From the IMG/VR virus record IMGVR_UViG_3300046000_004360, positions 1-55,573 of that record: a DNA stretch of 55,573 nt; one strand, given 5' to 3'. Made by a program: the position numbers and the translations under genes. The notes below the pieces were generated by a model. It had not been told where the DNA came from and ran no database searches. It saw nothing but the letters and a program-made list of their open reading frames with translations. Below, piece by piece: positions 5,598-47,008 of the stretch. The stretch's first letter is position 1. Each line of letters starts with the position of its first letter. Source of the stretch: a virus. Taxonomy: Duplodnaviria > Caudoviricetes.

Positions 5598-5622
5598 CAA
5601 ATAAAAGCCCTCCGAAGAGGGC
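5598..5622 (-). terminator. Rho-independent terminator (copy 2)
   Basis: GCCCTC-TTCG-GAGGGC followed by TTTTATTT; C(UUCG)G tetraloop. Confidence 0.85.
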
Positions 5623-5668: not shown

Positions 5669-6526
5669 TCAAGCATATAGGAAACTCCATCCTTTATATA
5701 TTCCTTTGCTTATTGGCTTACCTGACTTGAGGGCACGGTTGATTGTGGGTGGCGCTAACGACAATACCGCTCGTAAATTAGTAATACTGTCATATATGAC
5801 AGTTTCTTCGCTCGGGTTAATAGCCACTACCTTCTTACTCATCTTCAGCTTGCTTTCTTCCGTGTGGGTTCTACCTAGCCAGTGGCCGTAGTGCCCAGCG
5901 GCTGCAGCTACCTTTATCTTCTCCATACCTTCTGGAGATACTTTGCGCCCCGGACCTTTTGGCACCCCTCGCTGTGCATCGCCTATTTTGCGCTTTACTT
6001 CGTCTGGTTGTTTCTTTCCATATAAATAGTGGTTTTCGCCTGCGTGAAGGCCGACGCGATTTTCGCTCATTTTTTGTTTGGCCTCTTTGGTGTGGTTTAT
6101 TCCATACATAGGATGTTTTTCTGGGGCCTTGAAGTAATAGGATTTTAGGGTGCCTGAAATTGCCTGTTTATGTTCCTCGGTTCTCGGGATGCCAAATAAC
6201 GGATTATCTTCCCCAAATAACCCCCGCATAGGTGCATCAGAATATCGACTTAAATTATAGCAGTGATCTTTTCCTACGTGTTCTGCCAACCATACATCTT
6301 CTGCGGCTTGTAGTGATTCACCTTCCGGCACGGTTTCAACTATACGGAAAATAAAGTTCTGTTCCCCATACTTATTCCATGCGGCTTGCAGATGTTTTGC
6401 GTGGTGTTGGTTAGTTCTAAGTCTATTTCTATGGCACCTAAACCTATCCTTGTGTTTTACTGTACTCCCTACATAGAACTTTCCGTTTACGAGATTAATT
6501 ATTTTGTATATGTACTGTTCTCTCAT
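5669..6526 (-). CDS. Freestanding GIY-YIG homing endonuclease with NUMOD3-type repeats and NUMOD1-like C-terminus
   Basis: YIYKIINLVNGKFYVGS...R...H; repeats HTKEAKQKMS and HTEESKLKMS; start moved to 6526 because the 6562 ATG overlaps the promoter -10. Confidence 0.9.
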   Translation of the reverse strand: MREQYIYKIINLVNGKFYVGSTVKHKDRFRCHRNRLRTNQHHAKHLQAAWNKYGEQNFIFRIVETVPEGESLQAAEDVWLAEHVGKDHCYNLSRYSDAPMRGLFGEDNPLFGIPRTEEHKQAISGTLKSYYFKAPEKHPMYGINHTKEAKQKMSENRVGLHAGENHYLYGKKQPDEVKRKIGDAQRGVPKGPGRKVSPEGMEKIKVAAAAGHYGHWLGRTHTEESKLKMSKKVVAINPSEETVIYDSITNLRAVLSLAPPTINRALKSGKPISKGIYKGWSFLYA

Positions 6527-6560
6527 ACTTACCCCCATAGTTATTAACCTACTAAAAATC

Positions 6561-6588
6561 ATTATACGCGCTTTGGCGCGTTTGTCAA
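6561..6588 (-). promoter_or_regulatory. Consensus sigma70 promoter for the endonuclease, with a palindrome in the spacer
   Basis: TTGACA-N16-TATAAT; ACGCGC...GCGCGT inverted repeat across the spacer. Confidence 0.8.
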
Positions 6589-6597
6589 TAAAATAGG

Positions 6598-6623
6598 CAA
6601 ATAAAAAGCCCTCCGAAGAGGGC
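6598..6623 (-). terminator. Rho-independent terminator after the major capsid gene (copy 1)
   Basis: Same GCCCTC-TTCG-GAGGGC hairpin followed by TTTTTATTT. Confidence 0.85.
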
Positions 6624-19912: not shown

Positions 19913-20125
19913 ATGACTGAGGTAGAGAGAGCATTTTTATTGCATCTAGTAGTAGAGCATGGGGATAGACCATTCGCCTATACATGGGCAAAAGAGCCGA
20001 TGATGTCCTTGCGGCGTGAGGGGATGATTGAAGTAACTGAGTTTGTGACAGATGTGAAAACCAGTGACGCCAGAGTGACTGCGGCGGGATTAAACTTTTT
20101 AAAAGGGGGACAAAATGAGCAGTAG
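19913..20125 (+). CDS. Small winged-helix-like protein, paralogue A
   Basis: FLLHLVVEHGDR...LRREGMI...VTAAGLNFLK. Confidence 0.7.
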   Translation: MTEVERAFLLHLVVEHGDRPFAYTWAKEPMMSLRREGMIEVTEFVTDVKTSDARVTAAGLNFLKGGQNEQ

Positions 20126-23281: not shown

Positions 23282-23469
23282 GAGCGACTAAAACACTATT
23301 ACAGCTAAGTATCGATATGGAGGCTGCCTCTGCCGCCTATGCTGCCCGTGATGCCCGTGATGCCTGTGATGACTATACTACTGCCTCTGCTGCATGGTTT
23401 GCTGCCCATGGTGCCTATGTTGCTGCCTATGGTGCCTATATCAATGTCCTCAAGGAGAACCATGAATAA
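23278..23469 (+). CDS. Ala-rich repeat protein, copy 1
   Basis: KTLLQLSIDMEAASAAY followed by 9-nt repeat units. Confidence 0.65.
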   Translation: MRATKTLLQLSIDMEAASAAYAARDARDACDDYTTASAAWFAAHGAYVAAYGAYINVLKENHE

Positions 23470-23674
23470 AACACTATTACAGCTAAGTATCGATATGGAG
23501 GCTGCCTCTGCCGCCTATAGAGCATCCCGAGCTGCTGCCCGTGGTGCCCGTGGTGCCCGTGGTGCCTATGTTGCTGCCCATGGTGCCTGTGCTGCTGCCT
23601 CTGCTGCATGGTTTGCTGCCTGTGATGCCTATATCAATACCCTCAAGGAGTACCTGAAAAATGTGCGACCATAA
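23462..23674 (+). CDS. Ala-rich repeat protein, copy 2
   Basis: 52-nt identity with copy 1 (23289-23340 = 23467-23518); ends in the EYLKN junction. Confidence 0.65.
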   Translation: MNKTLLQLSIDMEAASAAYRASRAAARGARGARGAYVAAHGACAAASAAWFAACDAYINTLKEYLKNVRP

Positions 23675-23858
23675 AGCGAAATTGCGCAGTTACTTACTTA
23701 TGTTGCTGGTGGCTCATGGGGATAGTTATTTTAACTATATAAGTGATGAATACTGGTTACGATTAGTCCGGGGGGAATATATAAAATATGATTTAGGGAT
23801 CGGGTACAAAATAACCCCAAAAGGGCTGGAATTTTTAAAACAAGGAGGATCAACATGA
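23661..23858 (+). CDS. Small winged-helix-like protein, paralogue B
   Basis: YLLMLLVAHGDS...LVRGEYI...YKITPKGLEFLK. Confidence 0.7.
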   Translation: MCDHKAKLRSYLLMLLVAHGDSYFNYISDEYWLRLVRGEYIKYDLGIGYKITPKGLEFLKQGGST

Positions 23859-26346: not shown

Positions 26347-28208
26347 ACATTAATATTATTGCTTGCGACATAGAGACTTTTTACTCAAAAGAGTATGGGC
26401 TGACTAAGTGCACTACCGAAGAATACATACGCTCTCCGTTGTTTCAGACAATTGGTGTAGCTACAAAAATTAACGATGGGTCTATTGAGTGGGTGTCAGG
26501 TACGCATGAGTATGTTAAGGAATATTTAGAGTCTTTACCGTGGGATACACATCTATTACTAGCGCAGAACACAGCGTTTGATGGGGCGATACTTAACTGG
26601 ATTTATGGTATCAAACCCAGAGGTTATTTAGATACGATGAGCATGGCAAACGCGCTGCATGGGGTGTCGGAATCATCATCACTGGCAAACCTATGCAAGC
26701 TATATAAGTCGCGGCCTAAAGGGGATGAAGTATTGAATGCGTTGGGCAAGCGGAGGGAAGATTTTACCCCCACAGAACTGGCGACATACGGAGAGTACTG
26801 CCGCGATGACGTTTTTTCAACGCATGATATATTTCACAAGATGCTACCGATCTTCCCAAAGTCGGAGCTAAAAGTAATTGATCTAACCATAAGGATGTTT
26901 GCACAACCAATAATAGAAATAGATGCGCCGATGCTGGTGGAAGACTTGATAAACATAAAGAGAACGAAGCGCGAATCACTAGAGAAACTGCAAACGGCTT
27001 TGGGGGTGGGTAGTGAAGCGGAACTAAAAATTAAAGTAATGAGCAACCCCAAGTTTGCTGAGTTGCTTAAGGCGCAGGGGGTGGAGCCGCCCACCAAGAT
27101 CAGTGCCAAGACGGGTAAGACTGCATGGGCGTTCGCCAAGACAGACGAGGAGTTTACCAATCTGCTTGAGAGTGATGACCCTATTGTGGCTACACTTGTA
27201 TCTACACGGCTGGAGAATAAGTCTACCATAGGAGAAACAAGAACAGAGGCGTATATCGGTATAGCGGGGCGGGGCACTTACCCATTCTCACTGTCATATT
27301 CAGGCGCGAAGATAACGCACCGTTGGAGTGGCTTTGGGACTAACCCCCAAAATCTGCCTCGCGGGTCGACATTACGCAGGGCACTCGTGGCACCAGACGG
27401 GCGCACGCTGGTAGTGGCAGACTCAAGTAACATCGAGCTACGCTCAGGGATGTGGTTGGCGGGGCAGCAAGACGCACTACAGCAGATTAGGGATGGGTTG
27501 GACTTGTATCGGGTGTTTGCATCGGAATCATTTAACTTGGATTATGATAGTATAGGTAAAACCAGTGATGAAAGGTTTATTGGAAAGGTCTGCCAGCTCT
27601 CACTTTTGTACCAGACAGGGCATGTAAAATTGCAGAATACAATTCGCATACAAAGTAAAGGCAAGATAACTATCACGCTCAAAGAGGCAGAAAGATTAAA
27701 GTATTTATACCGTGATACATATGATAAGATAGTTGATGCTTGGGGTGATGGAGAAGAGGTACTTTCGTGGATTGCTAATGATGAAGAACACACAGCGTTC
27801 GAGTTTTTACCTGTACATGGTAAGAAAGGTATTCTTAAACCTAGTGGGTTATACTTACCATATCCGGGGTTAAGAAAAGAAAACACAGAAAAAGGGAACG
27901 AGTGGCAATATGATACAAGGAGAGGATGCAGCATATTAAAAGATAAAGCTTACGGGGGAAAATGTTTCCAAAGAATAAATCAAAGTTTGGCGCGGGATAT
28001 TATATCAACACAGACGATGGAAATAAATAAACGATATTGGGTTGCAGGATTGGTACATGATGAGGTAATATGTGTAGTTCCAGATGCTGAAGTAGAAGAA
28101 GCCAAGATATTTATACAAGAAGTTATGAGGAAGCCCCCATCATGGGCATTGGATTTACCACTGGATTGTGAAGTAGGATCAGGGAAACGATATGGCGACG
28201 CCAAATAA
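26343..28208 (+). CDS. polA: Family A DNA polymerase with 3'-5' exonuclease
   Basis: ExoI DIET, ExoII N..FD, ExoIII YC..D; NPQNLPR; motif A DSSNIELR; motif B R...K...L...Y; motif C VHDE. Confidence 0.92.
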   Translation: MNINIIACDIETFYSKEYGLTKCTTEEYIRSPLFQTIGVATKINDGSIEWVSGTHEYVKEYLESLPWDTHLLLAQNTAFDGAILNWIYGIKPRGYLDTMSMANALHGVSESSSLANLCKLYKSRPKGDEVLNALGKRREDFTPTELATYGEYCRDDVFSTHDIFHKMLPIFPKSELKVIDLTIRMFAQPIIEIDAPMLVEDLINIKRTKRESLEKLQTALGVGSEAELKIKVMSNPKFAELLKAQGVEPPTKISAKTGKTAWAFAKTDEEFTNLLESDDPIVATLVSTRLENKSTIGETRTEAYIGIAGRGTYPFSLSYSGAKITHRWSGFGTNPQNLPRGSTLRRALVAPDGRTLVVADSSNIELRSGMWLAGQQDALQQIRDGLDLYRVFASESFNLDYDSIGKTSDERFIGKVCQLSLLYQTGHVKLQNTIRIQSKGKITITLKEAERLKYLYRDTYDKIVDAWGDGEEVLSWIANDEEHTAFEFLPVHGKKGILKPSGLYLPYPGLRKENTEKGNEWQYDTRRGCSILKDKAYGGKCFQRINQSLARDIISTQTMEINKRYWVAGLVHDEVICVVPDAEVEEAKIFIQEVMRKPPSWALDLPLDCEVGSGKRYGDAK

Positions 28209-28452
28209 AGATGATGATTACGCTGCTTGGCTACTAAAAGAGATACTGGCGCATGGGGTTGATAATGCGTCAGCATGGTACCCAAGTATGCCGCCATGCG
28301 AGTTCGGCTGGCGCATAGAGGCCGTAAGACACGGGCATCGCCTCATTGATGAGTCTAACCGCAAGCTGCGCAATAAATACGATCATACATTTTGGTACTC
28401 CCCCAAAGCAGTTGAGTGGCTAAAGGATTACAACGAGAGGAGAAATAAATGA
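28192..28452 (+). CDS. Divergent winged-helix-like paralogue C, carrying an nrdA-identical 27-mer
   Basis: WLLKEILAHG...AVRHG...WYSPKAVEWLK. Confidence 0.55.
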   Translation: MATPNKDDDYAAWLLKEILAHGVDNASAWYPSMPPCEFGWRIEAVRHGHRLIDESNRKLRNKYDHTFWYSPKAVEWLKDYNERRNK

Positions 28453-28661
28453 GTAAATTTAAGAAGTTACCGCAGCATGAGTTGGATGGAATGTCTCGCA
28501 AGGAGCTGGACGATTATTTTGAGGCGGAGGATAACAATAGGCTGAGAGACAAGTTCGCTATGGCTGCGATGTCTGTGGATTTAAGGGGTAGTAGTGTTGA
28601 AGCAATTGCTGAGATGTGTTTCCTGTTGGCAGATGCGATGATGATAGAAAGGGATAAATAA
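28449..28661 (+). CDS. Hypothetical phage protein
   Basis: LRDKFAMAAM...A..C..LADAM..ER, a motif common in small phage proteins. Confidence 0.7.
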   Translation: MSKFKKLPQHELDGMSRKELDDYFEAEDNNRLRDKFAMAAMSVDLRGSSVEAIAEMCFLLADAMMIERDK

Positions 28662-28742
28662 TGAAGAGAATACTTACCGCAATAAGAGCAAAACTAAAGA
28701 GCTGGCAAGATGCATTAGAACAAAAAATAAAGAAAATAACCG

Positions 28743-29408
28743 ATGGCCTATAGTTACTCAGCGTTGAAGGAATTTTCCCAGTGCCCTAGGAAATACCATG
28801 AGAATCGGGTGCTAAAAAAGTGGCCTTTCCCTAAGACAGATGCTATAATGTATGGCGAGGAGGTACACAAGGCACTAGAGGACTATATAGGTAGCGGGGT
28901 TGATTTAGGTAAGCATAGCAGATTCAAGGACATTGCTGATTCATTGCTCAGGCTGGAGGGGGAGAAGCTAGTCGAGTTTAAGATGGCGTTGGATCACTCT
29001 CTACAGCCGTGTGATTTCTTTGATAAAGATGTTTATCTGCGTGGGGTTGCTGATATTGTCGTGTTGAATAAGGCGACAAGCAAGGCGTATATAGGAGACT
29101 ATAAAACTGGCGGGGATAAGTACCCCGACAAAGACCAGTTAGAGCTTATGGCGTTGATGATATTCAGGTACTTCCCGGAGATAACATACGTGAAGGCCGC
29201 GCTGTTGTTTGTGGTGCATGATACGATTGTTACTGCTGAGTACCACAAGAAGGAAGCCAAGCCCACATGGTTAAAGTGGATAGGTAAGATTAACGAAGTA
29301 GAGGCGGCACATGAAGCGGGGGTATGGAACGAAAAGCCCACGGCACTATGCCCGTGGTGCCCTGTGAATGATTGCCCGCACTGGTCAGAGAAAAGGAAAA
29401 GTAAATAA
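28743..29408 (+). CDS. PD-(D/E)XK (Cas4/RecB-like) exonuclease
   Basis: SYS....F..CP; G..VH; RG.AD; DYKTG; QL; C-terminal C..C....C. Confidence 0.85.
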   Translation: MAYSYSALKEFSQCPRKYHENRVLKKWPFPKTDAIMYGEEVHKALEDYIGSGVDLGKHSRFKDIADSLLRLEGEKLVEFKMALDHSLQPCDFFDKDVYLRGVADIVVLNKATSKAYIGDYKTGGDKYPDKDQLELMALMIFRYFPEITYVKAALLFVVHDTIVTAEYHKKEAKPTWLKWIGKINEVEAAHEAGVWNEKPTALCPWCPVNDCPHWSEKRKSK

Positions 29409-29674
29409 TGCCTAGAAAACCTAATATACCTAAAGGTTCGCCGTACTGGAAAGAAGAATGGAAAAAGATGCAGGCTAATGGGGAAGACAAGAAGCAGCTT
29501 GAAAGGGCTAAGGCCAGAAGGATGGTCGATAAGGCGGGAATTAATAGGAAGGGTAAAGATGTAGGGCACATCAAGCCAGTGGAGGATGGGGGTAAGAGCG
29601 TGATGAGCAACTTACGTATTGAGGACTCCAGTAAAAACCAGAGTAATAATTTGCATAAGAAGGGGGAGAAATGA
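29408..29674 (+). CDS. Small HNH-like protein
   Basis: GKDVGHIKP...GG....NLR.....N; the usual DH appears as GH. Confidence 0.6.
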   Translation: MPRKPNIPKGSPYWKEEWKKMQANGEDKKQLERAKARRMVDKAGINRKGKDVGHIKPVEDGGKSVMSNLRIEDSSKNQSNNLHKKGEK

Positions 29675-31332
29675 ATGTAAAACTAATAAGCCATTCAGTA
29701 CCTACAGGCCCAAAGATAGAAGGTATGCAGGGGTTAGTAGCCTTCTGTGCTAGGGTGAGTAATCCAAGCAACCAACATAACCAGAGTACGGAGAAGTTAA
29801 TTACATACTTGCTGGATAATAAACACTTCTCGCCACTGGAAATGGTTAATGTTTGTCTGGAAATTGAAACGACTCGCGATATTGGTAGGCAGATACTTAG
29901 GCATAGATCATTTACGTTTCAGGAATTTTGTGTTACTGGGGATAGTTTAATTACTACGGTTACTAAAGGAGGTAGGACAAAAAAAGTATCTATTGAGAAG
30001 CTATATGCGCGGCATAAGTCCGACCAATATAGAGGTATAAGTGATAATTTAGTTCGTGTGTATGATGAGAAGAGCAGGTTTCTATCCTCGGCCAAGATAA
30101 AAGAAGTATTTAAAACTGGCAAAAAGGACGTGTATGAACTAACCCTAGAAAACGGAAAGAAAATACAATCCACTATGGATCATAAATTTCTTACTTACGC
30201 CGGGTTTAAACCGCTTAAAGCGATAACCATAGATTCTTTCGTTGGATGCAATGGGATTCCAGTCCATCAAGAGCATAGCTGGTTGCAACAAGCGAAGATA
30301 GAATCAATAGAAGCGGGGGTAGGGATACCATACATAGCTCACAAAGCGCAAATAAGCTACCATACTGTTAGGAAGTGGCTAAGAATACACAAACTGCAGT
30401 ACTCTAAAAAAGAGGTCGCGACATATACTAGTATATGGAATAAAGGCATACCGAAGGAATACCAACCTAATTTTGGTGGTTTCCACAGCAAAGAAACACG
30501 GGAAAAGATGTCTGCTAGTGCTATGAAGGGGGTTGATTCTAACTTATATAAAAATGGTAAGTACACAACGGACACTATGAGGTGGAGGAATTTAGTCGCT
30601 CAGAAGTGTAAAGGATACCATTCAGAAATTCTACAAAAGCAAAATAACAGGTGTGCCATAAGTGGGGCCCGTATTAATTTGAGTAATAGTGAAGTAGACC
30701 ATATACACCCAGTATACAGCCACCCTAGTTTAGCGTTTGAAAAAACAAACTTACAGGTATTATGTAAAGAAGCGCATAGAGTAAAATCAGGCAAAGAAAG
30801 AAAAGAAGCAAAGTACACAGCAAGGTTTTCAAAAGTGAAGTCTATTTTTTACATAGGGGAGAAAGAGACGTATGATATTGAGGTTGAGCATCATAGTCAT
30901 AATTACATAGCTAACGGGATCGTTACTCATAACTCACAAAGATACGCCGACCCAGTTAAGGAACTAAATTTTGAATTACGCGAAGCAAGGTTGCAGGACG
31001 CGAAGAACAGGCAGAACTCTATGGATACCACAGATAGAGACTTAAAAGAGTACTGGCACATGAAGCAAATGGAGGTGATTAACTTAGCTAAAAAGAATTA
31101 CCAGTGGGCGTTATATAACGGTTTAGCTAAGGAATGTGCCAGAGTAGTGCTGCCAGAGGGGAATACATTATCTAGGATGTATGTGAATGGCACTATGAGA
31201 AGCTGGTTACACTACTGCGACTTGCGGGGTAGTAACGGCACACAGAAAGAACATATGGACATAGCACGAGAATGTGTAGAAGTTATAAGCACGGTGTTTC
31301 CATTGATAAAACAAAAAGAAAGCCCTACATGA
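29671..31332 (+). CDS. thyX: FAD-dependent thymidylate synthase ThyX, interrupted by an intein
   Basis: ARVS, H.SPLE, RHRSF.FQEF|SQRY signature split by the insertion; E.AR.VLP; Q.EH. Confidence 0.93.
   Translation: MNVKLISHSVPTGPKIEGMQGLVAFCARVSNPSNQHNQSTEKLITYLLDNKHFSPLEMVNVCLEIETTRDIGRQILRHRSFTFQEFCVTGDSLITTVTKGGRTKKVSIEKLYARHKSDQYRGISDNLVRVYDEKSRFLSSAKIKEVFKTGKKDVYELTLENGKKIQSTMDHKFLTYAGFKPLKAITIDSFVGCNGIPVHQEHSWLQQAKIESIEAGVGIPYIAHKAQISYHTVRKWLRIHKLQYSKKEVATYTSIWNKGIPKEYQPNFGGFHSKETREKMSASAMKGVDSNLYKNGKYTTDTMRWRNLVAQKCKGYHSEILQKQNNRCAISGARINLSNSEVDHIHPVYSHPSLAFEKTNLQVLCKEAHRVKSGKERKEAKYTARFSKVKSIFYIGEKETYDIEVEHHSHNYIANGIVTHNSQRYADPVKELNFELREARLQDAKNRQNSMDTTDRDLKEYWHMKQMEVINLAKKNYQWALYNGLAKECARVVLPEGNTLSRMYVNGTMRSWLHYCDLRGSNGTQKEHMDIARECVEVISTVFPLIKQKESPT
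29929..30933 (+). mobile_element. Intein (335 aa) with an HNH-type homing endonuclease
   Basis: Starts CVTGDSLI; block B T.DHKFLT; ends TYDIEV...NYIANGIVTHN before extein Ser; internal EVDHIHP...NLQVLC..H. Confidence 0.92.
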
Positions 31333-33095
31333 CAATAAAAAAAGATTATATCAGGGATGCACTATTCGATACCCTTGGGTTACTGAGGCTTAAGAATAGT
31401 TATATGATGGCGGGGGAGAATAGCCCCCAAGATAGGTTCGCTTATGTGTCAGAGAAGTTTAGTAGTAACCCAGACCATGCACAGCGGCTGTATGATTATG
31501 CTTCAAAACACTGGCTGTCTTACTCCACCCCAATACTGTCATATAACGAGGATAAGCGGGGGTTTGGGATTGCTTGTTTCTTGAACACCATAGCGGATAC
31601 AGCCGAAGGGTTGGTTGAGAACTTATCAGAAACAAACAGGTTCTCTATGTTGGGCGGGGGGGTCGGTATTAACTTTGGGATACGTTCCGCAGATGAGAAG
31701 TCTACAGGGGTTATGCCACACCTCAAGATATATGACGCTTCCGCATTGGCATACAAGCAAGGGAAAACTAGGAGGGGCAGCTACGCAGCGTACTTGGATA
31801 TTAGTCACCCAGATATTAAGTTGTTCTTGGAGATGCGCAAACCAACGGGGGATCAGAATCTGAGAGCCTTGAATATGCACCACGGGATTAACATATCAGA
31901 CAGTTTCATGGAGTTGATTGACCGATGCACACAAGACCCAGACGCTGATGATTCATGGGATCTCAAAGACCCTAACAGCCCAGAAGTGCGCGAAGTAGTC
32001 TCAGCTAAAGAACTTTGGCAGCGTATATTAGAAACACGGATGCAGACTGGGGAGCCATACCTACACTTCATTGATGAGTCTAACCGCAAGCTGCCTTATT
32101 GGTTGAAGGATAAAGGGCTTGAAGTTAAGCAGTCGAATTTGTGTTCTGAGATCGTACTCCCAACAAACGAAGAAAGAACTGCGGTATGCTGCTTGTCCTC
32201 AGTGAACTTGGAGTATTATGATGAGTGGAAAGGCGACCCGCAGTTCTTGCTGGATATAGCGGAGATGCTGGATAATGTATTGCAGCACTTCATTGATAAT
32301 GCACCAGACAGCGTAGAGCGGGCTAAGTTTTCAGCGCGGAGTGAGCGTAGCATTGGTGTAGGGGCGTTGGGATTCCATGCTTACCTACAGAAGAACTATA
32401 TCCCTTGGGAATCTGCGCAGGCGGTAGGCAAGAACTTAGCGATGTTTAAGCATATAAGGTGCCATTTAGATTTAGCTAACGGGGTGTTAGGAAAAGAAAG
32501 AGGGGAGGCTCCAGACGCGGTTGGTACAGGGCGTAGATTTTCACACCTTATGGCAATTGCCCCCAATGCCTCCAGTTCTATTATTATGGGTAATACAAGC
32601 CCATCAATTGAGCCTTATAGAGCTAATACCTACAGACAGGACACACTATCAGGTTCTCATTTAGTCAAGAACAGGTGGCTAGATAAGGTGCTTAAAAGTA
32701 AGGTGTTGCTTGAAGAAGAATTACCTGATATATGGGCAAGTATCATCGCAAATAATGGGTCGGTTCAACACCTAGCAATCCTGACTGAGTGGGAGAAGGA
32801 TACATTTAAAACGGCAATGGAACTTGACCAGCGATGGGTGATACAACACGCTTCGGACAGGCAGCCGTTTATAGACCAAGCGCAGTCGGTTAATGTGTTC
32901 TTCAGACCTGATGCTAACATCAAGTATATCCACGCAGTACACATGCAGGCATGGAGGCAGAAACTAAAGACCCTATACTACTGCAGGTCGGAGAAGATTA
33001 ACAAAGGGGATAAGTTGTATCACAAGGTAGAACGTGATATAATTAAAGAGATTGACGCGGGTGGGGATGATAGTTGTCTTGCCTGTGAAGGATAG
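31329..33095 (+). CDS. nrdA: Class I ribonucleotide reductase alpha subunit (no ATP cone)
   Basis: STP, ACF, GGGVG, SNLCSEI, CCLSS, APNASSS, TLYY, C-terminal CLACEG. Confidence 0.95.
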   Translation: MTIKKDYIRDALFDTLGLLRLKNSYMMAGENSPQDRFAYVSEKFSSNPDHAQRLYDYASKHWLSYSTPILSYNEDKRGFGIACFLNTIADTAEGLVENLSETNRFSMLGGGVGINFGIRSADEKSTGVMPHLKIYDASALAYKQGKTRRGSYAAYLDISHPDIKLFLEMRKPTGDQNLRALNMHHGINISDSFMELIDRCTQDPDADDSWDLKDPNSPEVREVVSAKELWQRILETRMQTGEPYLHFIDESNRKLPYWLKDKGLEVKQSNLCSEIVLPTNEERTAVCCLSSVNLEYYDEWKGDPQFLLDIAEMLDNVLQHFIDNAPDSVERAKFSARSERSIGVGALGFHAYLQKNYIPWESAQAVGKNLAMFKHIRCHLDLANGVLGKERGEAPDAVGTGRRFSHLMAIAPNASSSIIMGNTSPSIEPYRANTYRQDTLSGSHLVKNRWLDKVLKSKVLLEEELPDIWASIIANNGSVQHLAILTEWEKDTFKTAMELDQRWVIQHASDRQPFIDQAQSVNVFFRPDANIKYIHAVHMQAWRQKLKTLYYCRSEKINKGDKLYHKVERDIIKEIDAGGDDSCLACEG

Positions 33096-33103
33096 GGGAG
33101 AAG

Positions 33104-34081
33104 ATGAAACAAAAACATAATTTACTAGAAGAACGACAGTGCTTTAAGCCGTTTAATTATCCTTGGGCGTACAACGCTTGGTTGGAGCATGAGCAGAGCC
33201 ACTGGGGGCCTTGGGAGGCGAAACTGGGGGAGGATGTAAAGGACTGGAATAAGAACTTAACCGCAGCAGAGAAGAACTTATTGACCCATATTTTCAGGTT
33301 CTTTACCCAAGCGGATATTGATGTGGCGGGCGCATATGTCAAGAACTACCTACCCTATTTTCCACAACCAGAAATACGTATGATGTTGTTGGGGTTTGCT
33401 AATAGGGAAGCGGTACATATCGCAGCTTATTCACACTTGATTGAGACTCTGGGACTACCGGAGACTACCTACAATGAGTTTGCGCAGTATCAGGAAATGA
33501 AAGAGAAGCATGAGTACTTGGTGGATATATCTAATACGCAATGTGACAAGGCAGATACTGCAGTGCATATGGCAGTGTTCTCAGGGTTTACCGAAGGGAT
33601 GCAGTTGTTCTCGTCGTTTATTATGCTGCTGAACTTCTCTAGGCAAGGCAAGATGCGGGGGATGAAGGACATTATTACTTGGTCTATTCAGGATGAGATG
33701 ATGCACTGTGATGGGATGATTAAGTTGTTCCGTGAGTATGTTAAGGAGAACCTTGATATATGGAACGACGAGACTAAGGAGAGGATATACGCAGCCGCTG
33801 AGAAGATGGTAGAACTGGAAGATAAGTTTATTGATTTGGCGTTTGCTATGGGGGATTTAATTGATTTAACTAAAGAGCAAGTTAAGGTGTATATCCGGTA
33901 CATTACTGACAGACGCTTGATTGGTTTGGGCTTGAAGGGTATTAACAAAGTGAAGCGCAATCCACTACCGTGGGTAGAAGAAATTATTAACAGCCCGATA
34001 CATGGTAATATGTTTGAGACAGTAATAACAGACTATGCCAAAGGCGCATTAACAGGATCATGGGAGGAAGTATGGGCATAA
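33104..34081 (+). CDS. nrdB: Class I ribonucleotide reductase beta subunit
   Basis: FFTQAD, EAVH...Y, EGMQLFSSF, DEMMH dimetal ligands. Confidence 0.95.
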   Translation: MKQKHNLLEERQCFKPFNYPWAYNAWLEHEQSHWGPWEAKLGEDVKDWNKNLTAAEKNLLTHIFRFFTQADIDVAGAYVKNYLPYFPQPEIRMMLLGFANREAVHIAAYSHLIETLGLPETTYNEFAQYQEMKEKHEYLVDISNTQCDKADTAVHMAVFSGFTEGMQLFSSFIMLLNFSRQGKMRGMKDIITWSIQDEMMHCDGMIKLFREYVKENLDIWNDETKERIYAAAEKMVELEDKFIDLAFAMGDLIDLTKEQVKVYIRYITDRRLIGLGLKGINKVKRNPLPWVEEIINSPIHGNMFETVITDYAKGALTGSWEEVWA

Positions 34082-37342: not shown

Positions 37343-40175
37343 TATGGATACGCTAATTAAAAGCGTGGTGCCACAGCAGGGGGTGTATTGCCTTAACACA
37401 ATACTAGAGGGTTCGGTACACCAGACTTTCCACGATACCCCAGATGAGCTAGTTACTGAAGGTGTGATAGCATCTTTATCTGGAAGAAACGCCTATTATG
37501 CAATGGCTTCGTTTAAGGATAGTTCTTCTCGCGGGCAGCAGAACGTGCGGGCAGTTAAGTCTTTCTGGCTTGATGTGGACTGCAAGGATATGCTACCTAA
37601 TAAGGACTATGCCAATAAGGATGAAGGCAAGCAAGCTATAATAGACTTCGTTAAAGCGCAAAAGTTCCCTCGGCCTACTATTGTCGACTCGGGTAACGGC
37701 TGGCATGTGTACTGGATATTGGAAGAAGAAGTGACCCCGGAGTTGTGGCAACCCCTCGCAGATAAACTAAAGACCGTATGCCTCAAGACAGGATTACGGA
37801 TAGACCCAGCGTGTACGGCTGACAGCGCGAGGATACTGCGCATACCAGATACCTATAACTACCGTTTTAACCCACCATCTAAGGTGGAACTAATCAGACA
37901 TAGCCCTGTAGTAAGTTTCAGTGAGTTTAGTAGCGTAGTCGAGGCAGCATACGAGCCGTTTCGCGCTTTACAGAACCCCCATAAACGCGGGGTAAGCGCC
38001 GCAACTCAAGCCCTATTGGGGAACACCGAATCTAGTTTCAAGAAGATTTTAGTGCGTAGCACTGCAGGCACAGGATGTGAGCAGATATTGTTAGGGGTGC
38101 AGAATCAAGCAGAGATTGAAGAGCCTTTATGGAGGGGGATGCTCTCGATAGCACAGCAGTGTTCGGACAGGGAAAAGGCAATACCGTTTGTATCTAACAA
38201 ACACCCTGAATATGATATGGATGAGTCGTTCAAGAAGGCAGAGCAAACTAAAGGACCCTACACTTGTGCCACATTAGATAGTATTAACGCAGGGGTATGT
38301 AGTTCATGCACTCATTGGGGGCGCATTACAAGCCCCATACAGCTCGGCAAAGAGATTATAGCTATCAAAGCCCCAATAACGGTAAACATCGCGCCTGAAG
38401 TGGTTGTGGAGCCTGTGGATGACGCCGTAGAAACAACACCAGACCAGAACCTAGAGGCCTACGAACAGGAAGAACTGAAGGTAGTAATACCCGTGCCTCC
38501 TGCACCATATTCACGCGGGGTACATGGGGGTATTTATAAACGAACTAAATGCGAAGATGGCACTTTTGATGACGTACTAATTTATGAGAATGATTTTTAT
38601 GCCCATGCGAGATTATATGACCCGGCTGACGGGCAAGTTCTGGCTTGTAGACTACATCTACCCCTTGATGGCGTTAGAAACTTTAATATCCCGCTACAGT
38701 CAGTAGGCTCCAAGGATAGGTTAAGAGATGTTATTTGTAAGCAGGGGGTTGCGGCGTCAGATAAAACTGTGGTAGAATTAAGCAACTACTTAATATTGAT
38801 GGCGAAGGAGCTACAGAGGATGAGCAAAGAAGAGCAGGCACGGACGCAGATGGGGTGGCAAGATGATGATAGCTTTGTGATAGGCGCTAGGGAATACTCT
38901 AAGGATGGAATAAGGCACTGCCCCCCATCAAATGCGACTACTAATTACCAACACATGTTCAGGATGGAAGGCGACATAAAAGAATGGAGAAAAGTAATTG
39001 ACATATATAAACTGCCGGGGTTTGACATACATCAGTTTATATTCTTTACCGCGCTAAGTTCGCCGTTCTTGAAGCATATTGAAGTTGAGGGCATGATGAC
39101 CTCCATGATTTCCGATGAGTCTGGGATTGGTAAGACTACGCTATGTATGGCATGTAATAGTATTTGGGGGCACCCTAAAGAAATGATGAGTATGCCGCAT
39201 GATACTGTTGCCGCGCTTATTAATCGGATGGGGGTATTTCATAGTATGGCGGTAGTAGTAGATGAGCTTACCAATAAAGAAGCGAAGCCCTGCAGTGACA
39301 TTCTGTATATGGCTACCCACGGCAAAGGCCCCGCTAGAATGACAAGTGGCGCTAATGTGGAACGAGTGAATAATACAACATGGAACCTAAACGTACTCAC
39401 AACGGCTAACGCATCAATCCGTGATAAGGTTTCCGCATATAAGGCATCAGCAGAGGGGGAGAACATGCGCCTGTTCGAGTTTGATATGCGCGGAACTCCG
39501 GTAATCCCCAAGGCAGAAGCGGATGCTGTGTTCTCGAAGATGAACGATAACTATGGGGTAGCGGGGCATATATTCACATCATGGCTGGTTAAGAATGTTA
39601 AAGATATTAAAAGGATAGTATTACAGACACAAGCCATCATGGATAAACGGTTTGCCTTCACTAGCAAGGAGCGTAAATGGTCATCCTGTGTAGCTGCTGC
39701 ATATACAGTAGCGTATATTGCCAAGAGTTTAGGACTCCATGACTTTGATATAGAGCGTAATATTCTGTTCATGGTTGCCTACGTGCAACGGATGCGTGGG
39801 GAAGTCAAAGAAGGGGTTACGCAGCACTGCGACTTGATCGCTAATTTCATGGGGGAGAATCACAGCAGTATCTTGATAATCAACGGATACCCCGACCCAA
39901 AAACAGGGCTGTTTGATGCCCCGCGCAACAAGAATATTAATAAAATCATAGGCAGATACGAGCCAGATACAGGTAAGTTAAGCCTATCCGCAGCGGTATT
40001 AAGGGAATACTGTGCCAAAAAACAGTACTCGTTTAGCAGCTTGACTGCACTATCTGGCGGTAAAATAGAGTCTCGCAGGCTGGCGGTAGGTACGGGTATT
40101 GTAGCAGCATCAGTCAGGGTTATTACCTTCGATACCAAGATGGCTGGGCTTGATATGTCTATGTGGGAGGATTGA
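37335..40175 (+). CDS. Primase-helicase (AEP/RepB-like primase, Cys-rich linker, DUF927/Cch-like helicase)
   Basis: WLDVDC, DSGNGWHVYW, ARILRIP; C...C..C.H; Walker A SGIGKTT, Walker B VVDE. Confidence 0.85.
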   Translation: MTDMDTLIKSVVPQQGVYCLNTILEGSVHQTFHDTPDELVTEGVIASLSGRNAYYAMASFKDSSSRGQQNVRAVKSFWLDVDCKDMLPNKDYANKDEGKQAIIDFVKAQKFPRPTIVDSGNGWHVYWILEEEVTPELWQPLADKLKTVCLKTGLRIDPACTADSARILRIPDTYNYRFNPPSKVELIRHSPVVSFSEFSSVVEAAYEPFRALQNPHKRGVSAATQALLGNTESSFKKILVRSTAGTGCEQILLGVQNQAEIEEPLWRGMLSIAQQCSDREKAIPFVSNKHPEYDMDESFKKAEQTKGPYTCATLDSINAGVCSSCTHWGRITSPIQLGKEIIAIKAPITVNIAPEVVVEPVDDAVETTPDQNLEAYEQEELKVVIPVPPAPYSRGVHGGIYKRTKCEDGTFDDVLIYENDFYAHARLYDPADGQVLACRLHLPLDGVRNFNIPLQSVGSKDRLRDVICKQGVAASDKTVVELSNYLILMAKELQRMSKEEQARTQMGWQDDDSFVIGAREYSKDGIRHCPPSNATTNYQHMFRMEGDIKEWRKVIDIYKLPGFDIHQFIFFTALSSPFLKHIEVEGMMTSMISDESGIGKTTLCMACNSIWGHPKEMMSMPHDTVAALINRMGVFHSMAVVVDELTNKEAKPCSDILYMATHGKGPARMTSGANVERVNNTTWNLNVLTTANASIRDKVSAYKASAEGENMRLFEFDMRGTPVIPKAEADAVFSKMNDNYGVAGHIFTSWLVKNVKDIKRIVLQTQAIMDKRFAFTSKERKWSSCVAAAYTVAYIAKSLGLHDFDIERNILFMVAYVQRMRGEVKEGVTQHCDLIANFMGENHSSILIINGYPDPKTGLFDAPRNKNINKIIGRYEPDTGKLSLSAAVLREYCAKKQYSFSSLTALSGGKIESRRLAVGTGIVAASVRVITFDTKMAGLDMSMWED

Positions 40176-40360
40176 TGAGGGAGAGGTTACTGCGCTGGGT
40201 GCTTGAAAATGGCGAGGGGTATGGGCATTATAGCCCTTATGGGCCTTATGGGGGGGATACGCACTACGGAGACCTACTAGAGCATAGTTATATAATATGG
40301 AAGGAACGTTTGGGGTACAAAATAACCCCGGCTGGACTGGAGTACCTGAAAAATGCGTGA
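40175..40360 (+). CDS. Small winged-helix-like protein, paralogue D
   Basis: MRERLLRWVLENG...LLEHSYI...YKITPAGLEYLKNA; TGATG coupling to the primase gene. Confidence 0.7.
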   Translation: MRERLLRWVLENGEGYGHYSPYGPYGGDTHYGDLLEHSYIIWKERLGYKITPAGLEYLKNA

Positions 40361-40550
40361 GACACTGATGAAACTGCTACTGGAGCACGGGGATAGGGAG
40401 TTTGATTATAAGCTGTTACAGCCTATACCTTGGTTTAAATTAATTGACTCGGGGTATTTAGTCCGGCATGGGGTTAGGCCCAACCCCCCAATAACTATGC
40501 TAAAAATAACCCCCGCTGGACTGGAGTACCTGAAATCCGATGCTGATTGA
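40353..40550 (+). CDS. Small winged-helix-like protein, paralogue E
   Basis: MRETLMKLLLEHGDR...LIDSGYL...KITPAGLEYLK. Confidence 0.75.
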   Translation: MRETLMKLLLEHGDREFDYKLLQPIPWFKLIDSGYLVRHGVRPNPPITMLKITPAGLEYLKSDAD

Positions 40551-40746
40551 GTTGCCTGATGGGGGGCATATTGACATACCGATTGAGCATATGATAGTTA
40601 AGGACAGCATATTTATTCCCACGCTGGAGGCGGGCAAGGCCAAGAAGTTAATAAATAAAGTGTCAGATGAGTTAGAAATACAGACAAAATGTAAACAAGT
40701 AGTGTATAATGGGTATTTAGGGGTAATAATTTGGAGAGTCGCATGA
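40540..40746 (+). CDS. Conserved small protein (possibly DNA-binding)
   Basis: DSIFIP...G.LG.IIWRV motif. Confidence 0.65.
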   Translation: MLIELPDGGHIDIPIEHMIVKDSIFIPTLEAGKAKKLINKVSDELEIQTKCKQVVYNGYLGVIIWRVA

Positions 40747-41108
40747 ATATAGACAAAGCCGTGGCAGCGATAGAAGCCATTATATCCCCACCAGATGAGA
40801 CCCCGGTGCTACCCACGAATATTTATTCTATACTGAACGCAATTAGGCGCGGTTTATATACCAATATAGATGAAAATAAGCCAGAGCATAGGCTGGCTGT
40901 AGGGGTCATTATGCAGGCCATCTCGGATTACTGCAACGGCGATGCGTATATACCTACCCCAATATATAAGCGGAAAGAGGCATATATATCAGGCACTCAG
41001 TTCTTAACGGGGGAAGGGTTGAGGTACTGGGCAGCGGTGGCGGGGCTATCCCACGAAGACATATATAGGGCGGCGGCTAAGACTAAGGAGTACCTGAAAA
41101 ATGCGTGA
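40743..41108 (+). CDS. Hypothetical protein ending in the EYLKNA junction
   Basis: PEHRLA..VI.QA..D...FL......WA..AGL motif. Confidence 0.65.
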   Translation: MNIDKAVAAIEAIISPPDETPVLPTNIYSILNAIRRGLYTNIDENKPEHRLAVGVIMQAISDYCNGDAYIPTPIYKRKEAYISGTQFLTGEGLRYWAAVAGLSHEDIYRAAAKTKEYLKNA

Positions 41109-41317
41109 CTTATTGTTGAAGCTGCTACTGGAGCACGGGGATAGGGAGTTTGAGTGGCCCCACTGGCACCAAGATGAGTATTTTTCTATGATTCGTGCGG
41201 GTTATTTAGGCCTTGGAGAACTAGAAAAATATAACATAACCCCACAAGGACTGGAGTACCTGAAAAATGCGTGACTTATTGTTGAAGCTGCTACTGGAGC
41301 ATGGGGATAGGGGGTTT
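41087..41317 (+). repeat. About 65-nt direct repeat spanning the gene junctions before paralogues F and G
   Basis: GGAGTACCTGAAAAATGCGTGACTTATTGTTGAAGCTGCTACTGGAGCAYGGGGATAGGGRGTTT at 41087 and 41253; shorter copies at 23647, 40339 and 40523. Confidence 0.9.
41101..41274 (+). CDS. Small winged-helix-like protein, paralogue F (57 aa, not in ORF track)
   Basis: MRDLLLKLLLEHGDREFEWPHWHQDEYFSMIRAGYLGLGELEKYNITPQGLEYLKNA. Confidence 0.75.
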   Translation: MRDLLLKLLLEHGDREFEWPHWHQDEYFSMIRAGYLGLGELEKYNITPQGLEYLKNA

Positions 41318-41479
41318 ATTGGAGTTAGGCAGCGTGGGGGGTTAGGGCTGCTATGGAAAGCAGGGTTAATTAGTATTGATAGTGAGGCGGTGCCACCCGC
41401 AAACTTTGAAATATCCCCCATGACATTCAAAATATCCCCAAAAGGACTAGAATATCTCAAAAACATTGACAATCCGTGA
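41267..41479 (+). CDS. Small winged-helix-like protein, paralogue G
   Basis: MRDLLLKLLLEHGDR...LWKAGLI...FKISPKGLEYLKN. Confidence 0.75.
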   Translation: MRDLLLKLLLEHGDRGFIGVRQRGGLGLLWKAGLISIDSEAVPPANFEISPMTFKISPKGLEYLKNIDNP

Positions 41480-44500: not shown

Positions 44501-47008
44501 AGGGGAAGTGGCTGATGTAGCCCACGTATTAACACGATTAGCTAAGGCTTTGATTCTGCTCGCACCTATCAGTTTAGTCAGCCCTAAGTGGCCTCCTTTT
44601 TCGTGCAGGATCGTACCTTTCGCATTTCCTTTAGGTATATGGCTGGCGATATAATAATCTTGCCCTTTATGAACGAATGCCTTAGCGCCTCCTGCCTTAA
44701 CGTCTGCTATTACATCGCTGGGGAGAATCCCCTCAAGGCCTGAAAGGTCGTTTACTACGATAGGTGGTTTACGCGCTATTTGGTTGGGGGTAAGCAACTC
44801 CCCCATAGCTTGATTTACTTCTTCTGTTGTGCTTGGTTCTACGGGCGGTACGTCTTCCTTGGACTCATCCTTGGATTCTTTGGAAAGTTGCGAATTTCTG
44901 CGCCTAATCTGCGCAGCCACAGCCTGCATCGGTGATACATCATCTTCATGGGACTGCCCTTTCTCGTATGCTTTTACAACCCGCGATTGGTCAGCGGGGG
45001 TCAGTGATTCAAATGGAACATCGCTTAGGCTTGCCCACTCTTCCTGCGCTGCTAGTGTATCTTGCCTGCTTCCCTCGCGAACTCCACTGACCGCATTGTT
45101 TGTGTTAGCATCCCCGCTAGGAACTCCCACTCCCCCGGACTCAGTGACTTGAGTTTCTTGAGTTGTGGTTGGTGCCCGCTGTGTAGGCAATGGAACGCTC
45201 GGCTCAGTTCGTGATCCGACAGCATCACTTGTGTTTCCACTCGTTTGAGTATTAGGGCTGGGGCGGTTGGTTGACTCATTCATTACCTCCGATTGTTGGC
45301 GAAGCTTAGATTCTATCACATCTAACCGCTCTAATGCAAGTTGGGCAGCTTGTTGTCTAGCTTCAGATAAATTACCCTTGCCGTTTGCCTCGTCGGTTAG
45401 AATGTCTTTAAAAGCGTCGATGTTCTCCTGAGTGGATAAGTCCCCCACCTTTTTGAGCGCATTGCGCACCTTCTTATCACTCGGGCGCACCCCCAAATCA
45501 GTAAGCATAGCGTCATTTATTACTGTAGATTGCGCGGCATCTTGCGCAAAGGGCGCGGCTGTAGGTTGTGGGTCTGTTGGTATTCTTGTTGGGTCAAAAC
45601 CAGTAGGCTGCAGCGCATCTACATATCTACGGTACGCTGCAGGATCACTACTACCTGTGTTCCGCTTCCATTCATCAAAGGAACTAGGGGTTGTAGGTTG
45701 TGGGTCTGTTGGTATTCTTGTTGGGTCAAAACCAGTAGGCTGCAGCGCATCTACATATCTACGGTACGCTGCAGGATCACTACTACCTGTGTTCCGCTTC
45801 CATTCATCAAAGGAACTAGGGGTTGTAGGTTGTGGGTCTGTTGGTATTCTTGTTGGGTCATAGTCTGGCGGCGGGGGAGTAATATCCGCGTCTTGGTTTG
45901 CCATTTCCGCTTGGGCCATATCTCGCCCTTGAACATCCGTTTCGTCTATTATATCTTGCTGCCTCTGCTCTTCCTCCTGCCCCGCTTTCATTACTTCCGC
46001 ACGGGCTTTGGCTGCTTCTTGGAGTTTGTATTCCTGCAGGTCTTTTTTTGCTTGCCTTATATCATGTATTCCCGAAGCCGCCCGCATAGGTGCGCCGCCA
46101 GCAACACCCCCAGCAAACTCATTTTCGTAGTCTTCATACGCATCTGGTGAGGTTAATGGAAGCCCCGCCTGCGCCCTCTCCAATACTTTCTGCGCTACAC
46201 TTACTGGACCTTCAACCGCAGCGCCTTTTATGGGGAGTAATGCGTACCCCGCGACGGTTTCTTTCGCCGCTTTCAGCAGGTTTTGTTCAGTTACGTCTTT
46301 TATCGGGGCGCCAACTATCTTGCTAACTATCCGCTTACCCAACACATAACCAACTCCAGTCGCTTCCAGCGCCGATTCCCCTACAGCAGAAGCAACAGTT
46401 CCGGGGGTAACAAGAGGTCCGGGCGTTTTTGCTTCAATCTTAGCCTCGATGTTAGACCCGATAAACTGAGGAACGCCTGCGATGACTGCACCAACCCCTC
46501 CAGCAACCAATGCTCCTTTAGGACCCGCGCCGCGAGAGAGCGCAGCAGCAGCAGCAGCTTCCGCCCCTGCAACACTAGGCCCCATTGCTGGGAATGACTG
46601 CAGTATAGCATCTTTTGAAAACTTAGCCGCTTCCGCCAACCCCGGAATAACACCAGTGACCCCCGGTTCTTCCAGTGTAATAGGGGGATGTTCCCCCGCC
46701 CCAAACGCCTTTTTAACGTCAGGCCAGCTAGTTGTTTTTATGTTCGCATCTTTATTAGCGGCGGCGTTACGCTCCGCTTGCGCCCTAGTTTCTTCATCAG
46801 TCCTACCTAAACTACCAAGCCCCAACTCAACTTGCTGAACTGTGCTAGCCAAACCCTGCTGTAAGGGGGCAAAGAAGTTCGTATTTTCAGGGTGTTCCGC
46901 TTTGTATTGGGGGATTATGTCGTCTTCAATAGCGGCAATGATTTGCTCCTGACTCATCGAGTCAGGGAAGTTTACGCGCCCTATTCCTTTTATATTAACC
47001 GCAGGCAT
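41549..47008 (-). CDS. Large internal virion/ejection protein, polyvalent-protein-like (zincin-like motif; LPD38-like C-terminus)
   Basis: 1819 aa; ILHEKGGHLG..E.VAY; C-terminal KPLVEN..N....G.P...TSE..K......SP.KID.LI.G..G. Confidence 0.65.
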   Translation of the reverse strand: MPAVNIKGIGRVNFPDSMSQEQIIAAIEDDIIPQYKAEHPENTNFFAPLQQGLASTVQQVELGLGSLGRTDEETRAQAERNAAANKDANIKTTSWPDVKKAFGAGEHPPITLEEPGVTGVIPGLAEAAKFSKDAILQSFPAMGPSVAGAEAAAAAALSRGAGPKGALVAGGVGAVIAGVPQFIGSNIEAKIEAKTPGPLVTPGTVASAVGESALEATGVGYVLGKRIVSKIVGAPIKDVTEQNLLKAAKETVAGYALLPIKGAAVEGPVSVAQKVLERAQAGLPLTSPDAYEDYENEFAGGVAGGAPMRAASGIHDIRQAKKDLQEYKLQEAAKARAEVMKAGQEEEQRQQDIIDETDVQGRDMAQAEMANQDADITPPPPDYDPTRIPTDPQPTTPSSFDEWKRNTGSSDPAAYRRYVDALQPTGFDPTRIPTDPQPTTPSSFDEWKRNTGSSDPAAYRRYVDALQPTGFDPTRIPTDPQPTAAPFAQDAAQSTVINDAMLTDLGVRPSDKKVRNALKKVGDLSTQENIDAFKDILTDEANGKGNLSEARQQAAQLALERLDVIESKLRQQSEVMNESTNRPSPNTQTSGNTSDAVGSRTEPSVPLPTQRAPTTTQETQVTESGGVGVPSGDANTNNAVSGVREGSRQDTLAAQEEWASLSDVPFESLTPADQSRVVKAYEKGQSHEDDVSPMQAVAAQIRRRNSQLSKESKDESKEDVPPVEPSTTEEVNQAMGELLTPNQIARKPPIVVNDLSGLEGILPSDVIADVKAGGAKAFVHKGQDYYIASHIPKGNAKGTILHEKGGHLGLTKLIGASRIKALANRVNTWATSATSPMFGKEKAEITIAKEAIARANASGEPVGSDRYNQEVVAYFTEIAVNKYGIDPLETQPKEFDKVVGWLRDLWAGITDSLHKLRYAPETLKAKDIVDLVMGAARVEAMPDTKTTPTAEKTTADAPAQFSFEKQIPPSPADKAIAAQNGIRLPKRLTQEGVIAKLKARFNEITDNDLWGYLAQKNVGAGEAHALKHGTMYGTGERLNPLTGKEVGFVNLHRTLQADNIAMEAVNRGFPQLDKEGVAHVIPAASNMRALAGISTQIRADMKADGMSDALADTSIDYMLIADRHKELEAMGIDTGITNAEYLYGKKMQAKYAAQFRAWRDMHQKIREKTMQFLVDTNLFTPKKAREFLDRMEYVPFNREIPPGESTGAHLRGLLSAKKEHHIKGAGGLEIKDVMENIINNQVFLIKRGMANNTANLVADDMMRMNKDDNTQGGFEIPRDDKQGNNVEYLKQGQSQWFKVLNRNDAAIFHAAPVVNNIAVRIARTATGMLRKGITLMPTFTYNQLLQDPQRASFTAGTTSGVLGLAKTSLPEFRKNAFGGESPLAREGRAAGIVGAIDYQDTYDNWNKEVRGATRTGISKWFEKAERIARAQDLSNRLAVYKDVMDHGGTQNDATARAIMMYNYQNRGQGQHVSVLMALAPFINCRVQGDYRVLMALQGRLPGVTKAEAKKLVAKKILTFAAYTMMYTMATSGSDDRERADENTANNNFLLGGVKIPATPEFLPLKIAIEKSYRMMAGNINETKGKFAQAVSNAAKNLLVGPSDINPTAIKPLVENAFNHSTLTGKPLVGYTLQQKDVNMQFGDSTSEFSKAISDELQKLGGNTANMSPIKIDNLIKGWFGSVGRDALYTVDMLVGDKPAQKANRLPLVGGIFYDKEGNARVSDLYDLADESNRAWNTLADLEKHHPEKAEAYQKANLPLLRVHDSLKDMTSLLNEMREAKKAAVRENPATARAEISRLDAMANKILEKELPAIRKELGK
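45560..45860. repeat. 132-bp perfect tandem repeat (about 2.3 copies, 44 aa)
   Basis: Unit starts at 45560, 45692 and 45824. Confidence 0.95.

Follow-up and report, generated by a model that had tools for sequence, protein, structure and literature searches.

Genetic context of the repeated segment

The DNA analysed (hereafter the window) is the whole of one IMG/VR virus record, a linear sequence of 55,573 bp estimated to be 88% complete and belonging to a phage that occurs in lake-water metagenomes. The gene at the centre of the present study, referred to as paralogue C, is found in the list of open reading frames (ORFs) at 28192..28452 on the + strand, and codes for a predicted small winged-helix-like protein of 86 aa. 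It overlaps two neighbours, at its start the end of a family A DNA polymerase gene and at its stop the beginning of the following small ORF, and the interval that separates it from nrdA is occupied by a PD-(D/E)XK nuclease, an HNH-like ORF of 88 aa, and thyX with an HNH-bearing intein. The nrdA gene (31272..33095, +) codes for the large subunit of a class I ribonucleotide reductase (RNR) (Pfam Ribonuc_red_lgC, PF02867, 4.6e-104; lgN, PF00317, 3.1e-08), and is directly followed by nrdB (33104..34081; PF00268, 7.7e-71), which codes for the corresponding class I small subunit.

The thyX gene (Thy1 domain; 29671-31332, +) is split by the intein with its HNH domain (Pfam Intein_splicing, 9.7e-18; HNH, 0.0022), and the 88-aa HNH-like ORF (29408..29674; phrog_4590, 2e-13) is located directly upstream of it. 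The longest nrdA ORF overlaps the end of thyX by 61 nt (31272-31332); because related proteins align only from residue 19-22 on, translation of nrdA probably begins at the ATG near 31329, a codon overlapping the stop of thyX.

Occurrence and statistics of the 27-mer

A 27-mer that opens with TCATTG and closes with GCTGC is present in the window as two exact copies on the + strand, one at 28343-28369 and the other at 32068-32094, and no third copy was detected in the window when up to 3 mismatches were allowed. The copy at 28343..28369 (+) supplies the peptide (L)IDESNRKL, residues 51-59 of the 86-aa protein, while that at 32068..32094 (+) is the segment of nrdA that codes for the conserved FIDESNRKLP motif, residues 266-275 of the long ORF. 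Both copies are placed at frame offset 1 of their own ORF and both read IDESNRKL, as would be expected from the original prediction of an exact in-frame copy, a prediction that had further held the flanks to be unrelated and a match of this length to be beyond chance.

Both of these further points were borne out. In register, the flanks of the two loci agreed at 27/100 positions on the left side and at 30/100 on the right side, and when aligned locally they gave scores within the null (0.81 and 0.14 of the null scores were equal or higher). Two matches to the 27-mer were obtained in none of 100 dinucleotide shuffles, and in Markov simulations of the window (n = 20) exact pairs of at least 18 nt averaged 0.15, with none of at least 20 nt. 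A self-dotplot of the window at k >= 14, conducted as had been proposed, showed the 27-mer to be the sole long dispersed exact repeat joining non-homologous genes, the remaining long repeats being the conserved ends of paralogues, tandem repeats of large structural genes, and a 20-nt hairpin at 5603/6604.

Other points of possible likeness between the loci were rejected. The residues WLKD are encoded downstream of both copies, but are out of register (6 nt in one case, 48 nt in the other) and at chance level as a flank likeness. Homology-driven gene conversion between paralogues was likewise discounted, the two genes being unrelated and the flank identities (27/100 and 30/100) and scores falling within the null.

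Beyond the window, the 27-mer gave no match in sets of viral contigs or genome contigs, from which the closest records to the window may perhaps be missing, and DNA-level relatives of 27900-28800 were absent from the INPHARED phage collection.

nrdA as the donor gene

The window nrdA is full-length, intact and collinear with all 80 of the related nrdA genes compared with it (67-77% protein identity), in every one of which the homologous segment is free of gaps and its I, N and P residues are invariant. The nucleotide identity of these 80 genes to the 27-mer reached a maximum of 24/27 with a median of 17, and among the at least 17 relatives that also encode IDESNRKL the best reached 23/27. Because the segment is gap-free in 80/80 relatives, and identity is at most 24/27 elsewhere as against 27/27 here, the codons are not dictated by the peptide, the 27 nt belong natively to nrdA, and the copy is both recent and of own-genome origin. 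On the strength of these alignments it can be concluded that nrdA was the donor, and that the copy was taken recently from the nrdA of the window phage itself or from one nearly identical to it. No nrdA was found within 7 kb in the loci of DNA-polymerase relatives (L003-L082).

Soundness of the assembly

The window is a metagenome-assembled viral contig, and a chimera of assembly, or independent convergence of the two genes on the same peptide and the same codons, could in principle produce such a repeat. Strain comparison was conducted with Logan contigs, which are assembled sequences rather than raw reads, from four runs placed on positions 27600-32700. Contigs from X8, which may share a sampling campaign with the source sample, matched both loci without a difference or a gap, one of 995 nt covering 27904-28898 and another of 2593 nt placed on 30503-32700, so that each locus is spanned at the level of contigs, where the original prediction had called for reads. 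The nrdA copy was also spanned unchanged in X11 and X19 contigs, and was bridged in X14 with a synonymous T>C change at 32075. Near the insert one X19 contig ends at 28342 and one X11 contig starts at 28337, the depth there being only 3-5, too low to bear on whether those runs contain a mixed population. The X14 nrdA region additionally exhibited several loose ends, belonging to contigs that part from the window sequence once a brief shared stretch has ended.

Since both genes are collinear with their own families across the 27-nt repeat and the X8 contigs span both loci without a difference, misassembly is excluded for practical purposes. Convergence is opposed by the shortfall of the nrdA relatives with the same peptide, which attain only 23/27 nt, and by the failure of 100 shuffles to produce a match, and artefact or coincidence taken together has a negligible probability.

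Empty-site alleles and strain variation

The original prediction had also suggested that homologues of paralogue C be inspected for absence or variation of the segment, and a protein search returned two clusters, with and without the insert. The first comprises P0001, which is the window protein, and P0003, an 88-aa protein with a variant N-terminus in which the insert is present. The second comprises P0002 and P0004, both of 77 aa and both lacking exactly the nine residues LIDESNRKL: P0004, known at protein level only, agrees with the window protein in each of the 77 residues that the two share, while P0002 additionally carries 2 substitutions. The insert alleles were recorded on 14 (P0001) and 1 (P0003) contigs, possibly from one sampling campaign, as against 2 (P0002) and 1 (P0004) contigs for the empty alleles. 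No third allele at the insert site was detected among the 4 protein variants. A gapped-pattern scan of metagenome contigs for any allele of the target site returned 0 matches, a protein-level scan with P0004 only two trivial 9-residue matches, and a related-locus search of viral contigs no relative of the 86-aa protein.

At the nucleotide level, the empty site was observed in an X14 contig of 1154 nt (27969-29121), which differs from the window by 9 substitutions and leaves out 27 letters at 28343-28371, and which carries full depth at that point (7.7 of 7.7). The gap was split by the aligner as 5+1+21. The empty site reads CGC CGT AAT where the window with its 27 nt cleanly removed would read CGC CGC AAT, and is taken here as a clean absence of 27 nt together with a single synonymous change, located 2 nt away from the junction. 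The missing segment and the identity with nrdA are exactly coextensive, each of 27 nt, and the adjoining bases mismatch. By this count the X14 strain differs from the window at about 0.8% of sites, and its small protein has the replacements A20T and A73S.

The converse polarity, whereby the small gene would ancestrally have contained the 27 nt and a precise deletion would have produced the 77-aa alleles, could appeal to the majority status of the insert allele and its presence in two protein variants, P0001 and P0003. Such a deletion would, however, need both of its ends to fall exactly at the limits of nrdA identity; the flanking direct repeat is only 1 nt, so that slippage would be imprecise; and the identity with nrdA would still require an earlier copying event with the same boundaries. 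The more divergent X14 strain (the 9 substitutions in 1154 nt noted above) is without the segment, and no other member of the protein family carries IDESNRKL. Deletion is thus very improbable, and the event was an insertion, with nrdA as the donor, that is recent and polymorphic in the population.

The same alleles bear on functional accounts of the insert. In the one put forward in the original prediction, IDESNRKL on the wing would mimic a part of the RNR surface by which a host defence senses the enzyme; in a variant concerned with the DNA, the 27 bp would serve as a decoy or duplicate target for a nuclease or regulator that recognises this site of nrdA. The copy does keep the reading frame that it has in nrdA, more contigs carry the insert allele than the empty one, and 27 bp fits the size range of homing-endonuclease sites. 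Two of the three possible frames are, however, free of stops, so that the donor frame would be expected in roughly 1 in 2 viable insertions, and the presence of the empty allele in identical or near-identical strains shows the peptide to be dispensable. The nrdA segment itself appears from the alignments to be a highly conserved core motif near the NLCSEI catalytic loop rather than a variable surface patch, and a homing site for an intein or intron at that position was rejected, since 80/80 related nrdA genes are uninterrupted there. Neither a promoter-like site nor a significant local DNA fold (z = -0.9) was found in the insert, and no Rfam family was matched anywhere in the window. A decoy in either form is accordingly very unlikely, and no positive evidence was found for the one proposed for the peptide.

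The recipient protein and its landing site

The 86-aa protein belongs, as a divergent member, to a small-protein family with six further copies in the window, all on the + strand. These are a 70-aa paralogue at 19913..20125, a 65-aa paralogue at 23661..23858, two overlapping tandem paralogues of 65 aa each at 40163..40360 and 40353..40550, and a second overlapping tandem pair at 41101..41274 (57 aa) and 41267..41479 (70 aa). Members are marked by a conserved N-terminal helix of the LLLEHGD type and a C-terminal motif of the ITPxGLEYLKN type. A profile search returned 68 proteins at E <= 1e-3, mostly as short single-stretch matches, of which 43 entered a 52-sequence alignment.

In the tandem small paralogues (40163-41479, and also 23339-23858) the stop that follows the ...EYLKNA ending overlaps the following ATG. 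Two longer ORFs, at 23339..23674 and 40731..41108, end in an EYLKN-type motif and share exact matches of 17-22 nt with the paralogue ends, a pattern that suggests recombination or duplication at the paralogue junctions.

Related phages, in which the polymerase is 64-68% identical, have family members about 5-7 kb upstream of the polymerase gene, examples being L020:64-390 and 738-950, L003:157-366 and 2396-2608, and others in L035, L004 and L015. No orthologue of the 86-aa gene was found directly downstream of the polymerase in the loci of polymerase relatives (L003-L082); the family members there are weak ones and lie upstream, and the position of paralogue C is therefore not conserved.

Structure prediction was conducted on both alleles. 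With the 52-sequence alignment as input, the AF2 model of the insert allele (pLDDT 75.7) contained helices at residues 6-21, 36-46 and 71-85, strands at 50-52 and 67-69, and a helical turn at 54-58, and that of the empty allele (pLDDT 79.0) contained the same helices with a tight hairpin formed by strands at 50-53 and 57-60. The nine inserted residues thus lengthen a predicted beta-hairpin, or 'wing', following predicted helix 36-46, and their modelled position fits the placement between recognition helix and wing that had been proposed from the sequence.

Assignment of the fold drew on several comparisons. When the structure was compared by VIA-align with 48,161 chains, the top 50 matches were all winged-helix DNA-binding proteins with Z values of 5.7-7.1, a range in which, being below 8, similarity may reflect a mere common arrangement; the best was E. 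coli MarR with operator DNA (5h3r_A; Z 7.1, rmsd 3.8, 79 residues aligned). The predicted order of helix, helix, beta-hairpin wing and C-terminal helix resembles that of MarR/PadR-type domains and of archaeal virus F93. Unlike curated winged-helix families, the 86-aa protein had no Pfam or PHROG match at threshold, and Foldseek gave no match to the PDB at E <= 0.001, the weak top rows being mostly winged-helix proteins. Among the 52 family members the best Pfam winged helix-turn-helix matches were HTH_45 (E = 0.16) and HTH_34 (E = 0.19), in 2 members each, with scores of 12 bits as against cut-offs of 25-27. Weak but consistent, these results point to a putative winged-helix-like fold for the recipient.

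Measured from anchor to anchor, the segment that received the insert measures 13 residues without it and 22 with it. The same segment spans 11-25 residues across 49 other family members, and the site is, on this alignment, therefore tolerant of changes in length.

The search for other captures

The original prediction had envisaged that the variable cores of the family may be fed by templated capture from elsewhere in the genome. For the copy at 28343-28369 this is what the empty site and the native donor confirm, but its extension to the family as a whole found no support. At DNA level the cores of the six other window paralogues showed nothing beyond chance (0/6; longest exact matches of 12-14 nt, with blastn-short E >= 0.04), the 70-aa copy at 19913..20125 having no core match outside the family, and at protein level their core matches were trivial only. 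A survey of 160 related loci (1.65 Mb, each locus offering at most about 16 kb of context) contained six family members, of which again none (0/6) had a match of more than 17 nt to non-family DNA of its own locus. Since no other capture was found, the event is a one-off accident in the terms that the original prediction had itself set out.

It could still be argued that capture is systematic, the variable cores and wing loops of the family being routinely fed by pieces of the genome and the older captures having decayed past recognition. One capture is proven, the loop varies strongly in length across the family (the 11-25 residues given above), and the phage has several nucleases able to make breaks. 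Set against this are the two surveys, with 0/6 members in the window and 0/6 in related loci within at most 16 kb of context, the lack of a third allele among the 4 protein variants, and the fact that ordinary evolution by insertion and deletion accounts equally well for the variation in loop length. Routine capture is accordingly unlikely. A related proposal would make the wing loop a recurrent landing pad for homology-independent captures effected by the replication and repair set of the phage, with the family A polymerase and the PD-(D/E)XK and HNH nucleases as agents; the spectrum of loops would then have been built by 'loop grafting', and the nrdA graft would be the only one still young enough to be recognised and, being the commoner allele, perhaps an adaptive one. 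This proposal is also unlikely.

Proposed origin of the insert

The preferred reading, to which a probability of about 0.8 is assigned, is a recent, single, homology-independent templated insertion from the phage's own nrdA into the gene at 28192..28452 in the course of break or fork repair, and neutral by default. According to this scheme, 27 nt of nrdA (32068-32094) would have been copied into the small gene 3.7 kb upstream, on the same strand and in direct orientation, with nrdA left intact, such that the segment would have been copied and not moved. The most likely route would be an error-prone repair process at the target site, acting on either a break or a stalled fork, and the nucleases of the window phage, namely a GIY-YIG/NUMOD3 protein, the HNH-like 88-aa protein, the HNH domain of the intein and the PD-(D/E)XK nuclease, could have supplied breaks. 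No ligase, Ku or single-strand annealing protein was detected among the 46 of 71 candidate ORFs that were scanned with Pfam.

Two versions of this route may be considered. In the first, a 3' end would briefly copy an ectopic template, located on its own genome or on that of a sister, and then return, a double template switch similar to synthesis-dependent strand annealing (SDSA-like); in the second, a short fragment of a sister genome would be captured and ligated. The sequence gives no way to tell them apart. Microhomology at the junctions is at most 1 nt at either end, which is atypical of template switching primed by microhomology; the event was therefore independent of homology, and both fragment capture and an unprimed switch are open for the same reason.

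Toleration of the insert may be understood from its length, a multiple of three, its arrival in one of the two stop-free frames, and its extension of a hairpin segment that is naturally variable in length. Its persistence would be explained by these properties, because an in-frame, stop-free addition was made to a length-tolerant loop. Neutrality is the default assumption as regards any effect on the function of the protein, for example on contacts between wing and DNA, and the greater abundance of the insert allele by contig count leaves room for positive selection.

Comparison with known systems

The event is a templated insertion of an already known class of mutation and does not reveal a new system. 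The marks of that class which were observed are a near-identical empty site, an intact donor with 27/27 identity, and coinciding boundaries, and the one that was absent is microhomology at the junctions. The closest known process is ectopic capture, or the addition of filler DNA at repaired breaks, as for example in polymerase-theta-type end joining in eukaryotic cells (PMC5087911, PMC5453318). Common to both are tens of nucleotides identical to a sequence elsewhere in the genome, retention of the donor, lack of long flanking homology, and an insertion/deletion polymorphism. In contrast to the eukaryotic examples, the present event concerns a phage genome, with the donor 3.7 kb away and in direct orientation, and its junction microhomology of 1 nt or less sets it apart from microhomology-primed events, which usually have more. 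In the literature searched, no description of a natural templated insertion in a phage genome was found.

The nearest phage precedent is the work of Schultz and Drake (2008, Genetics 178:661) on templated mutagenesis in T4, where the templates are imperfect repeats, direct or inverted, and where one imperfect repeat is reportedly corrected toward another in a process that needs prior similarity around the site. There too the sequence of a phage mutation is set by an ectopic donor in the genome, but the flanks are here without similarity, and 27 nt were added rather than converted. A third comparison is with diversity-generating retroelements, which transfer sequence from a template region to a variable region (PMC6182149). 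The likeness is that a template is copied into a coding variable segment of a phage gene. Unlike such elements, the window has no reverse transcriptase among the 46 of 71 ORFs scanned, all 7 adenines of the segment are unchanged and the copy is identical at 27/27 positions, the donor is a housekeeping gene, and the target is without flanking homology.

The value of the case lies in the retention, in a natural phage population, of a short, homology-independent templated insertion in its 'before' and its 'after' state, with the donor known to the base. It indicates that a single step can add 9 residues, taken from a housekeeping gene of no relation, to the loop of a small protein of predicted regulatory type. 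A search image is provided as well, namely an exact intragenomic repeat coextensive with an insertion or deletion relative to a sister strain, which could be used to measure the frequency of such events.

Other features of the window

The 20-nt hairpin that appeared in the self-dotplot consists of identical, GC-rich, terminator-like sequences at 5603-5622 and 6604-6623, which bracket an ORF at 5672..6562 (-). This ORF is a free-standing gene of the GIY-YIG/NUMOD3 homing-endonuclease type adjoining a Mu gpT-like capsid gene, and the hairpin pair looks like an intergenic terminator duplicated at the insertion site of the endonuclease gene.

Tandem repeats were recorded in genes on the - strand at 45557-45860, 47853-48170, 48493-48608 and 50324-51007. 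The structural or virion-associated genes that bear them code for a 1819-aa LPD38-domain protein and for proteins of 792 and 687 aa, and the repeats comprise three 132-nt units, runs of the hexanucleotides CTTGGG and GGTGCT, and 21-nt units. They are likely to be length-variable regions.
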